Origin: Rhizobium sp. Q54 | GTDB taxonomy: Bacteria; Pseudomonadota; Alphaproteobacteria; SMXQ01 | Assembly: GCA_945861615.1 (NCBI GenBank) | Contig: CAMAVH010000002.1 | Coordinates: 2,955-66,954 of the forward strand | Direction: 5' to 3' | DNA: 64,000 bases | Part shown: piece after piece, positions 45,001 to 48,000 of the stretch | How positions within the stretch are numbered: the first letter of the stretch is position 1 | Layout: the number at the start of each line of letters is the position of its first letter | Made by a program: the position numbers

Positions 45001-48000
45001 CGTGGGTAGAGGTGTTCCAACTCGTGCAACGTCGATGAGAAGAAATCGGTATCGAGTCGCAGCAGCGCGATCTGATCGGGCGCCGCGCCGGGGATGGTAT
45101 CCTCGACCATGCCCTCAACGTAATGAACCTTGTGGGGGGGGATAACCGGTGCGCTTGATAAAGCGGCGGGTGTCGTCGAGCGTCGAAACGACCCAGCCGG
45201 AGTTGCCGTCGGGTCGAAGTTTTTGCGCCCATTCTTCGTGGGCCGATCGGCCGTCGGCGTAGACATCCCGTTCGCCCGGCACAGGCATGCCGGCAAAGGT
45301 GTCGAACAGGTGAAACTCCCGGTCGGATTGGCCGCGCTGCATCAAAGCATGCATCATGATGGCGACGCCGCCGCCTTTATAGACGCCGCATTCAACGAAT
45401 GCGCCGGGAATATTGTAGCGCGCGACATGATCCGTAAGGCGCACAAGCCCGGCAACACCCTCAGGGGAAACAATCGCGATATTTTCCGTGATGCAATAAA
45501 GCATTTTCTCTTCTGTCGTCAGATCGGAACGATCGACGCCGGGCACAGACATTTTGAAATTCTTGGCGACGGCTAAAGCATCCGCCCGCTTATCCGCATC
45601 GGATAAGGCACGGATCAGACGTATGTGAAGATATTGGTCGTCCGGTATTAGAATGACAGCCTTACGCCAGCAGACGAAGGCATGCGCGAGATCGCCGACA
45701 TTGAGGAATTGCTCGCCGACGTTCCACAGCACCTTCGGATGATGCGGCATCAGCAAGGCGACGGCTTCATCGAGCTTGTTGGCGACGATCAGCTTTTTGG
45801 TTTTTTCCTCAAGTTCTCTGATTTGCACCGCTAAGGTGTCTTGCTCGCTCATACTCGCACTCGCTAGCCTTGAATGATGGTGGATTCCACGGACCGGAAC
45901 CGCACAGCAGTGGATCCATGAGATGACTGCGGTCTGGGGCTTAAATATTCTTAACAGCGTCGTCCGGAAACTCTTTTTCTAGCGCGTCTGCCCGCGGACT
46001 CGTACGCCGGATGATGATGTCGCCCTGATCGGTGATTTCCGGCAGGGCGTATTGCGGCAAAGCCCCGACGAACCGGTCGAAGGCGCGCAACACGCTGTCC
46101 ATGCCCTGGCGAGCGAGTTGGCCCGGTCTGCGCGTGTCGCCCTGATCGGCGGCCAAAGTTTCGGCGAAGGCCGGCATAACGGTTGCGGTCAGAGTCAAGA
46201 AAACAACGGCAGACAGGAAACGGCGGACGGTCATGGTCAGGGCCTCCTGAAAGGAATGAACCGGCGAATTATACCTCGGCGCGCGGGCCTTTGCGGACCG
46301 AATTTGACTCCGCAGCGTCGGCGGCCCGGCCGCGGCCTAAAGATCTTTCAACGTGACCCCCGCCAGGGCCTGCTCGATAGCGCTCTCCGCCCACTGGGCG
46401 GCTGCCAACACGCCGGGTCGACCCTCCAGCGTGGCGCTAAGGCGCATGCGGCCAGTGCCGGCACCGCGCCACGCCGTCAGTACGGTGATATACGCCAGCT
46501 CATTCGGGCTTGATCATCATTCTGCCTCATAGCACCATGTTGCCATATCAAATTTTGAGAGACGATAGTGGCAGCAAAACACTCGCCCGCAAAGCATCCG
46601 TCTGATGAAGCCCCTCGGCCAGAGAGTCCTTATCGCAAGCCAGGACGCCCTTCTTTCAAGCCGACACAGCAACAGATTGGTTGGGTAAAAGGGGTGGCAA
46701 TGTTCGAGCCACCACTTGATTTTATTGCGCGGACAATTCCGGGGGGACCGATCTCGATAAAAACTCTCATGAAGAATTTTGGAGACACTATCAAATTTGC
46801 CAAGATCAACGCCATCAGCCAGGTGACCATGTCTCTCGTTCGAGCGGCACTTACGCCTGGGCCAGGCCAAGTCAGAGCACAAATTTTTTATCTTAAAAGT
46901 GTTGGTTGGCCCAATGACAATAGTGAGGCCCGCGTTGAGAAAAGCACGAGCAATAGTCAAAGCTCCCAGGCAAAGATCAATACAAAACGCCCCAGCGCGC
47001 GCCTAGCCGCTCGAGTTCGGCGTGTCAAATTCGCAGGAAGCGAAGACCGGCCGCGACTTTCATCGGCAGACGAAATCGAAAAATTAAGTAAATTACTCGC
47101 AAAGTCTTGACACACGCGACGATGAGCGAGCGGCCGTAAAAGCGCATCACAGCAATGCCGACCTCTAGCGCCGTCAGCTAACTTATCCCCGCAATCCACC
47201 GACCCCAGCACCACAACAACAAACAGTGTGTAAGTACCTACTGTTGTAGTTGGTGGGAAATAACGCGTTTTACGGGGATAACTTTTGATCAGAAATTTCC
47301 GCAATCAGGCGTTAACTGGCCAAACCCTAAATTCATTCTCACATCAACTTCCACTTGCACATTTTGTCTCGTCAGTTTCGCCCCCAAGCCGTAGGCATAC
47401 GCACTTGCATAATTAAGCCGTTCGCCTTTCGGACCCGTTGACCAGCGCAATGTTTTACGCGTGTGTGTGCTCATTCTCATTGTGATTCGTGGAGGATGGC
47501 GCAGTGGACGATGGAGCGAAATTTTTGGCATGGCGGATGCGCTTTCAAGCCGAGGCGCGTGATTTGCTCGCCTACATCAATCAAGCCTTGCTGCAGAGCT
47601 TGGCCGTCAGCGATGCAGGCTGCAAATGAACGGGCTTTCAACCGAACAGACCAAAGCGCTTGAAGCCAAATTGCAAGCCAAGCATATCCGCGAGCGGGAA
47701 ATGCGTGGCATGAGCTTTTCTTATCTCGAAGGCTGGCATGTGATTGCTGAAGCCAACCGCATTTTCGGCTTTGACGGCTGGGACCGCGAAACGCTAGAGA
47801 GCGCCTGTGTTTGGCATGCGGCCAGCCGTGACCCTGCGTGCAGCTATACAGCCCGGGTGCGCATCCGCGTGCGCGCCGGAGACAAGCTGGTGATCCGCGA
47901 TGGCTCTGGCTTCGGCTCAGGGACCGGCATCACTCTCGGCGAGGCCCATGAAAAGGCACTCAAAGAAGCCGAGACCGACGCCACAAAACGTGCCTTCATG

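Follow-up and report, generated by a model that had tools for sequence, protein, structure and literature searches.

The window analysed here is a stretch of 64,000 nucleotides (64 kb) from Rhizobium sp. Q54, contig CAMAVH010000002.1. It contains a long, mostly minus-strand polysaccharide gene cluster, and at one end of this cluster lies a gene for an O-methyltransferase of the TylF/MycF/NovP type, which is interrupted by a change of reading frame at a run of eight cytosines (C8). An earlier note on this DNA had drawn attention to the tract as a possible ON/OFF switch driven by slippage, with sequencing error as the alternative. The gene, its parts and its two intact paralogues are arranged as follows:

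44853..45852, minus strand: the whole disrupted TylF gene, 332 amino acids once one C is removed
45115..45852, minus strand: the N-terminal open frame, from the start codon, 245 amino acids, ending in ...GYPPPQGSLR and a stop
45134..45141, minus strand: the C8 homopolymer on the coding strand (G8 on the plus strand), read directly from the sequence; one C more than the in-frame C7 or CCTCCCC of the orthologues in the locus alignment
44853..45140, minus strand: the C-terminal third of the enzyme, out of frame (tblastn frame -3, residues 238-332, 100%), holding LRLDTDF and IIDDYG
24208..25371, minus strand: TylF paralogue 1, intact, 387 amino acids, its catalytic domain 50% identical to that of the broken gene
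30154..31347, plus strand: TylF paralogue 2, intact, 397 amino acids, its catalytic domain 42% identical to that of the broken gene

A TylF-family methyltransferase gene read in two frames

The minus strand around the tract reads ...AAG CGC ACC GGT TAT CCC CCC CCA CAA GGT TCA TTA CGT TGA, and the TGA stop (45115..45117) is reached seven codons beyond the last full CCC, with CCA CAA GGT TCA TTA CGT in between. When the repaired protein was used as a tblastn query, frame -2 (45852..45136) accounted for residues 1-239 and frame -3 (45140..44856) for residues 238-332, each at 100%, and the two frames meet exactly at the C8 run. The list of open reading frames (ORFs) gives both pieces, the second of them as 44853..45296(-) with a length of 147 amino acids. 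Deleting one C or adding two fuses the pieces into a single ORF of 332 or 333 amino acids; with one C out, the 332-residue ORF contains ...GYPPHKVHYVEGMVEDTIPG..., to be compared with KFIFVKGMVEDTIPG in the paralogue at 24208..25371(-). The earlier observation, that the third TylF/MycF-family gene of the window is read in two frames, that the junction maps exactly onto the G8/C8 run and that removal of one C restores a frame matching the paralogue, is therefore confirmed in every detail.

The exact 245-residue product (P0121) is on record in NCBI, ENA and Logan, and retains the N-terminal extension together with the first half of the Rossmann fold (ECGVYKGGG). The remnant of 85 amino acids reported by gene callers (P0123) starts at the internal Met of EGMVED and would hardly be plausible as an independent enzyme.

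In the repaired protein a helical TPR-like extension (approximately residues 1-110) precedes an S-adenosylmethionine-dependent O-methyltransferase domain of the TylF/MycF/NovP type. Each fragment matches the Pfam profile TylF (PF05711) over its own part, the N fragment at profile positions 79-154 (E = 8.7e-15) and the C fragment at positions 173-258 (E = 4.7e-23), and the repaired protein matches positions 79-258 in one stretch (E = 8.9e-41), its score of 140.3 bits lying far over the gathering threshold (cut-off 23). Residues 134-324 of the repaired protein align across the junction with PDB 5i10/4cdz, NovP (2wk1) and MycF (4x7u); in the alignment to 5i10/4cdz the motifs ECGVykGG, LRLDtDf and IIDDY are conserved, and the same motifs, which in general form are the ECGVxxGG, LRLDxD and IIDDY shared with the family, occur in both paralogues. 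An intact protein of 332 amino acids (P0001) is 94% identical to the repaired protein. We regard membership in the TylF/MycF/NovP family, as a frameshifted member, as solid. The antibiotic-tailoring enzymes of this family lack the helical TPR-like N-terminal extension of some 110 amino acids and belong to antibiotic clusters, whereas the window gene has the extension and sits in a polysaccharide cluster. The window copy further differs from them in that its frame is broken within the TylF domain, leaving a 245-residue product without the C-terminal third of a TylF-type enzyme.

The frameshift falls at residues 237-239 of the repaired protein, and what the 245-residue product has lost is the last third of the catalytic domain with LRLDTDF and IIDDYG, that is, the LDxD and DDY motifs. 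In the structural work on NovP and MycF these acidic motifs reportedly bind a divalent metal and include the catalytic base; because both are missing, the 245-residue product should, by analogy with those two enzymes, presumably be inactive.

The tract in related lineages

The fragments from the window belong to a cluster at 90% identity that has eight members: five distinct intact proteins of 332 amino acids (P0001, P0122, P0124, P0125 and P0127), the fragments of 245 and 85 amino acids, and a product of 110 amino acids. At the nucleotide level the tract was found in four states, all tract lengths given here being those of consensus contigs:

TAT CCT CCC CAC, in frame: L001-3 (SRR23086374, SRR23086378, SRR23086383), L012 (ERR12084917) and L013 (ERZ28612979)
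TAT CCT CCC CTC (CCTCCCCT), in frame: L011 (JGI 3300050207)
TAT CCC CCC CAC, an uninterrupted C7, in frame: L009 and L010 (SRR29729396, SRR29729407)
C8, frameshifted: the window's strain, alone

Compared across related strains, as the earlier note had suggested, the run is thus interrupted in most: of the eight orthologous contigs from other strains, six (representing four of the other five lineages) carry a T. The run is a C7 in L009 and L010 and a C8 in the window's strain only. The C7 and C8 lineages are approximately 7% diverged in the methyltransferase gene, and within every lineage sampled more than once the tract is identical across samples.

The same C8 allele is present in four further public contigs, two from ENA (ERZ27280263 and ERZ27280265, MEGAHIT k141) and two from Logan (ERR3719153 and ERR3719154). 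These are 99.9-100% identical to the window and gap-free, and differ from it only by 13-14 single-nucleotide polymorphisms (SNPs), which group at 46.7-50.0 kb and leave the glycan genes untouched. The contigs of the window's strain, labelled L004, L005/L007/L014, L006 and L008, all have C8.

Other collections added little to this set of relatives. A search of plasmid records with the region 43.5-47.5 kb gave no match, and a search of the GTDB species genomes with the repaired protein gave no related locus, the lineage not being represented there. The DNA pattern with a tract length of 6-10 had no hits among JGI metagenome contigs, a collection evidently without the sample of L011 and hence uninformative on this point; a protein search with the C-terminal 153 amino acids returned nothing above 60% identity, and it failed to recover P0001 itself, so it carries no evidential weight. 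A literature search on the run accessions found no match.

The 110-residue member of the cluster (P0126) derives from a short scaffold of 816 nucleotides, ENA ERZ28594217, of which positions 730-816 (L103) correspond to approximately 45500..45590 of the window and show a single-base deletion, GCCAAGAAT > GCCAA-AAT. This deletion is either an error, the scaffold being short, or a second, independent inactivation in another lineage.

Origin of the C8 allele and competing explanations

We consider it probable that the C8 allele is a genuine, recent and strain-specific loss-of-function allele that arose through replication slippage, and that it is an ordinary one with no evolved switch behind it. 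The in-frame C7 of a related lineage makes slipped-strand mispairing the likely origin. As we infer the order of the mutational steps, the ancestral codons would have been TAT CCT CCC CAC (Tyr-Pro-Pro-His), with an interrupted run; a synonymous CCT>CCC change would have produced the uninterrupted C7, a state still in frame in one related lineage; and slippage would then have added one C in the window's strain, giving C8. Translation would proceed through Y-P-P-P-Q-G-S-L-R-stop to the 245-residue product without the last third of the catalytic domain, and the corresponding O-methyl decoration would presumably be missing in the window's strain. The allele should be able to slip back, and would be reversible in principle, at an ordinary low rate.

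The age of the frameshift was addressed through the ratio of non-synonymous to synonymous substitution rates (dN/dS, Nei-Gojobori). For the repaired window gene compared with four orthologues this ratio is 0.08-0.125, indistinguishable from the 0.09-0.12 found among the intact orthologues, and for the part downstream of the frameshift it is 0.09-0.18. The changes unique to the window in this downstream part are one non-synonymous change (a conservative E>D) and four synonymous ones; a long-dead gene is expected to collect mostly non-synonymous changes. Since dN/dS is low and the downstream part shows no decay, the frameshift appears recent relative to the branch of its lineage, most of whose history would have passed under purifying selection.

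The allele resembles ordinary slippage frameshifts, or nascent pseudogenes, in O-antigen and capsule decoration genes, in that a single base is inserted in a short homopolymer, one strain is hit and its relatives are intact, the product is an accessory decoration enzyme, and nearby decoration genes are deleted elsewhere. Compared with such pseudogenes it is slightly unusual only in that both the C7 precursor and the CCTCCCC pre-precursor persist in relatives, and the series CCTCCCC > C7 > C8 illustrates that a slippage-prone site can arise from a synonymous change. The locus is best annotated as a frameshifted TylF-family O-methyltransferase, against the public calls of two genes (245 and 85 amino acids); correct annotation is its chief practical value, the finding being otherwise ordinary.

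Several considerations weigh against this conclusion. The independence of the five datasets is uncertain, as the ERZ assemblies may have been built from the ERR runs or share a study with them, so that one population may have been sampled throughout, and a minority of C7 or C9 cells would be invisible in consensus contigs. Intermittent expression would explain the undecayed downstream part no less well than recency does, and the inactivity of the 245-residue product is an inference rather than a measurement. Lastly, the tract reaches the cut-off of 7 or more for poly-G/C in Campylobacter (PMC6321876), and both the “ON” state (C7) and the “OFF” state (C8) exist in nature.

These last points lead to phase variation, in which the tract would slip between C7 (ON) and C8 (OFF) at high frequency and toggle one O-methyl decoration of the surface polysaccharide. 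We think this unlikely, although the locus has several of the expected features: an intragenic poly-C of 8 that exceeds the PhasomeIt cut-off, a glycan-decorating enzyme encoded within a polysaccharide cluster, alleles both in frame (C7) and out of frame (C8), and an out-of-frame part without sequence decay. There is also a precedent in the capsule 6-O-methyltransferase gene cj1426c of Campylobacter jejuni, a poly-G gene which is phase-variable (PMC8355987), and the likeness to the phase-variable capsule and lipooligosaccharide genes of that species is plain, with a poly-G/C tract of at least 7 inside a glycan O-methyltransferase gene and a one-base change that toggles the frame. PhasomeIt takes poly-G/C tracts of 7 or more as the cut-off for candidate phase-variable genes in Campylobacter, and its authors add that tracts of cut-off length may mutate below 1e-5 and make inefficient switches (PMC6321876). 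The C. jejuni tracts are conserved, mostly G9-G10, numerous in each genome and variable between isolates of one strain (PMC6321876, PMC8355987), whereas most orthologues lack the run seen in the window, which has no enriched set around it and is constant in length within a lineage. Switching in C. jejuni occurs at 1e-4 to 1.6e-3 per division and is tied to the lack of mismatch repair (PMC6321876, PMC8355987); the dependence of these high rates on absent mismatch repair (PMC8355987) counts against carrying the precedent over to the window gene.

The distribution of alleles also argues against phase variation. The run is not conserved, given the T in six of the eight contigs from other strains; C7 and C8 occur in lineages that are some 7% apart rather than in one strain; the four other contigs of the window's strain are all C8, and both datasets of the C7 lineage are C7. 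The exact products of the C6, C7, C9 and C10 versions of the window's gene were not found in a collection of 15 billion proteins. Other homopolymer tracts of 7 or more, whose presence in surface-structure genes the earlier note had thought worth checking, amount in the window, as far as G/C runs go, to one further run of eight, without any G/C run of 7 in the 64 kb. The two G8/C8 runs observed compare with a mean of 2.05 in dinucleotide-preserving shuffles, which is chance frequency, and the non-random feature of the tract in the methyltransferase gene is its coincidence with the frame change. The second run, which serves as a control tract, lies within a gene of its own:

1366..1373, minus strand: second G8 run, G8 on the coding strand, in frame (…HGLGGAVAYW…), 21 codons before the stop of the ORF 1304..2893
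1304..2893, minus strand: an ORF of 529 amino acids, hydrophobic and membrane-protein-like by its translation alone, adjoining heptose-pathway genes

The 529-residue ORF has no Pfam or NCBIfam match. The window, L097 (same strain) and L096 (a lineage approximately 90% identical) all have this G8 in frame, and L095 has G6C in its place. An equal length in two lineages some 10% apart is a further point against high-frequency slippage, and the in-frame G8 in three contigs indicates that assemblies cope with 8-base G runs and that such runs can be stable in the clade.

Measured against what defines phase variation through simple sequence repeats (SSRs), the window gene has the tract length inside an ORF, and it lacks within-strain length variation (at consensus level), conservation of the repeat in orthologues and an excess of tracts (in the 64-kb window). 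The slippage-driven ON/OFF switch of the earlier note therefore stands in part: slippage is the likely origin and a one-base change restores the frame, but the switch itself is unsupported, with a run interrupted in most orthologues, no within-lineage length differences, no alternative-length products and no enrichment of runs. Nothing points to a selected, high-frequency switch. Somewhat more speculative still is the idea of a contingency locus at birth in a free-living uncultured proteobacterium, where the C7/C8 run made by CCT>CCC would toggle one O-methyl decoration among the cells of a population, phage pressure being one conceivable setting; a leaky +1 shift at CCC-CCC-C might make the OFF state of such a locus less complete. 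Length heterogeneity within the population, if real, would place SSR phase variation outside host-adapted pathogens, which would be of moderate interest.

That the extra C is a sequencing or assembly error, the true genome having C7 and an intact gene, we hold to be very improbable. Homopolymers are the commonest sites of indel errors, the window is apparently a metagenome-assembled contig (P0121 is known from NCBI, ENA and Logan, the longest of its contigs measuring 68,662 bp) and the gene shows no decay, all of which would suit an artefact. However, the identical C8 was obtained with two assemblers from at least two different runs, in addition to two ENA assemblies. The k141 MEGAHIT and Logan contigs are presumably built from short reads, as their naming suggests, and for short reads, if that origin is right, an 8-base run is not a problem at consensus level. 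The control G8 was assembled in frame in three contigs. Furthermore, the added C is the only uncompensated single-base coding indel relative to the closest relative, L009, in the approximately 12 kb compared (33.8-46.3 kb). The remaining single-base gaps relative to the relatives are compensated pairs within a few bases, and on that ground the idea that the window is generally rich in indel errors was rejected; all other shared genes of the window are of the same length as their orthologues. The alternative of sequencing error raised in the earlier note is accordingly disfavoured by the recurrence of C8 in four other contigs and by the in-frame assembly of the control G8.

Least probable of all, in our estimate, is a bypass of the frameshift, whereby a +1 ribosomal shift on CCC-CCC-C (through re-pairing of tRNA-Pro) or slippage of RNA polymerase would yield some 332-residue enzyme from the C8 allele: moving the frame by +1 from the second CCC gives back exactly Y-P-P-H-K-V, the frame after the tract is undamaged, and CCC-C is a known +1-prone site for tRNA-Pro, consecutive prolines being known to stall ribosomes, but every orthologue is in frame and none requires a frameshift, the sequence has no typical stimulator (no adjacent stop, no obvious hungry codon, the next codons in the 0 frame being CCA CAA GGT, and no Shine-Dalgarno-like element just upstream of the tract), and the spontaneous rate is expected to be at the percent level or less. 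Programmed ribosomal frameshifting as a conserved feature is excluded, because all orthologues are in frame, the five variants being single 332-residue ORFs.

The surrounding cluster and further observations

The polysaccharide cluster includes a heptose pathway (a GmhA-type isomerase, HAD phosphatases and an HldE-like kinase/adenylyltransferase), an NDP-sugar dehydrogenase, several epimerases/dehydratases, a NodU-like carbamoyltransferase, a UDP-galactopyranose mutase (Glf), GDSL hydrolases, several TPR and fasciclin-domain proteins, the three TylF genes and one Acyl_transf_3 gene. From the family names of these neighbours, the substrate of the methyltransferase is likely to be a surface or extracellular polysaccharide. 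Two further features are placed as follows:

43572..44750, minus strand: Acyl_transf_3 O-acyltransferase (PF01757, E = 1.5e-16), 392 amino acids, intact, the next gene downstream of the methyltransferase
56508..58688: hybrid histidine kinase, its best genome hit a Parvibaculum MAG at only 56% identity and its other hits spread across many phyla, which allows a placement of the organism no finer than probably Pseudomonadota

The O-acyltransferase gene is intact in the window and in L011, and is affected by a deletion of approximately 1 kb, equivalent to 43842..44851 of the window and thus taking in part of the gene and sequence upstream of it, in L001/L002, L009, L012/L013 and the 3300059473 contig, where a C-terminal remnant ORF of 78-79 amino acids is left. 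It is thus a deletion polymorphism among lineages, several of which keep the methyltransferase intact with the O-acyltransferase deleted. This independent deletion elsewhere means that the decoration genes at the end of the cluster are lost differently by lineage, and shows glycan-decoration genes turning over at the level of strains in an uncultured lineage, with the methyltransferase frameshifted here and the acyltransferase deleted elsewhere. A mutually exclusive status of the two genes was considered and rejected, as L011 has both intact.

Between approximately 22000 and 41300 the window contains large genes with no or only faint family matches, encoding proteins of 878, 511, 485, 458, 455, 399, 391 and 356 amino acids. 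Several genes of this region have fasciclin or TPR segments, TylF, GDSL and Glf genes lie in between, and the whole is an unusual, uncharacterised polysaccharide-associated set. The gene for a TPR protein at 36394..37383(-) is 319-331 amino acids long in the window's strain, L009 and 3300059473, and is called with 207 amino acids in L001 (9452-10075) and L012 (10711-11334); an uncompensated difference of one nucleotide near position 37273 of the window may reflect a frameshift in L001/L012 or the use of another start there.

Upstream of the methyltransferase gene, at approximately 46145..50934, the window has an insert of some 4.4 kb relative to L001, L011 and L012, which is also present in L009. 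It is flanked by diverged direct repeats (46145-46489 and 50570-50934, 75-79% identical) and carries a Rad52/Rad22 and DUF968 gene (47626..49056) plus ORFs without a family match. The insert looks like a small integrated element, mobile or phage-derived, that has duplicated the end of the neighbouring region. At 47534..47748, upstream of and extending into the start of the Rad52/DUF968 gene, L004 and L007 differ from the otherwise identical window by 11-13 SNPs in approximately 200 bp, and this stretch is a patch of local hypervariability or recombination inside a single strain population.

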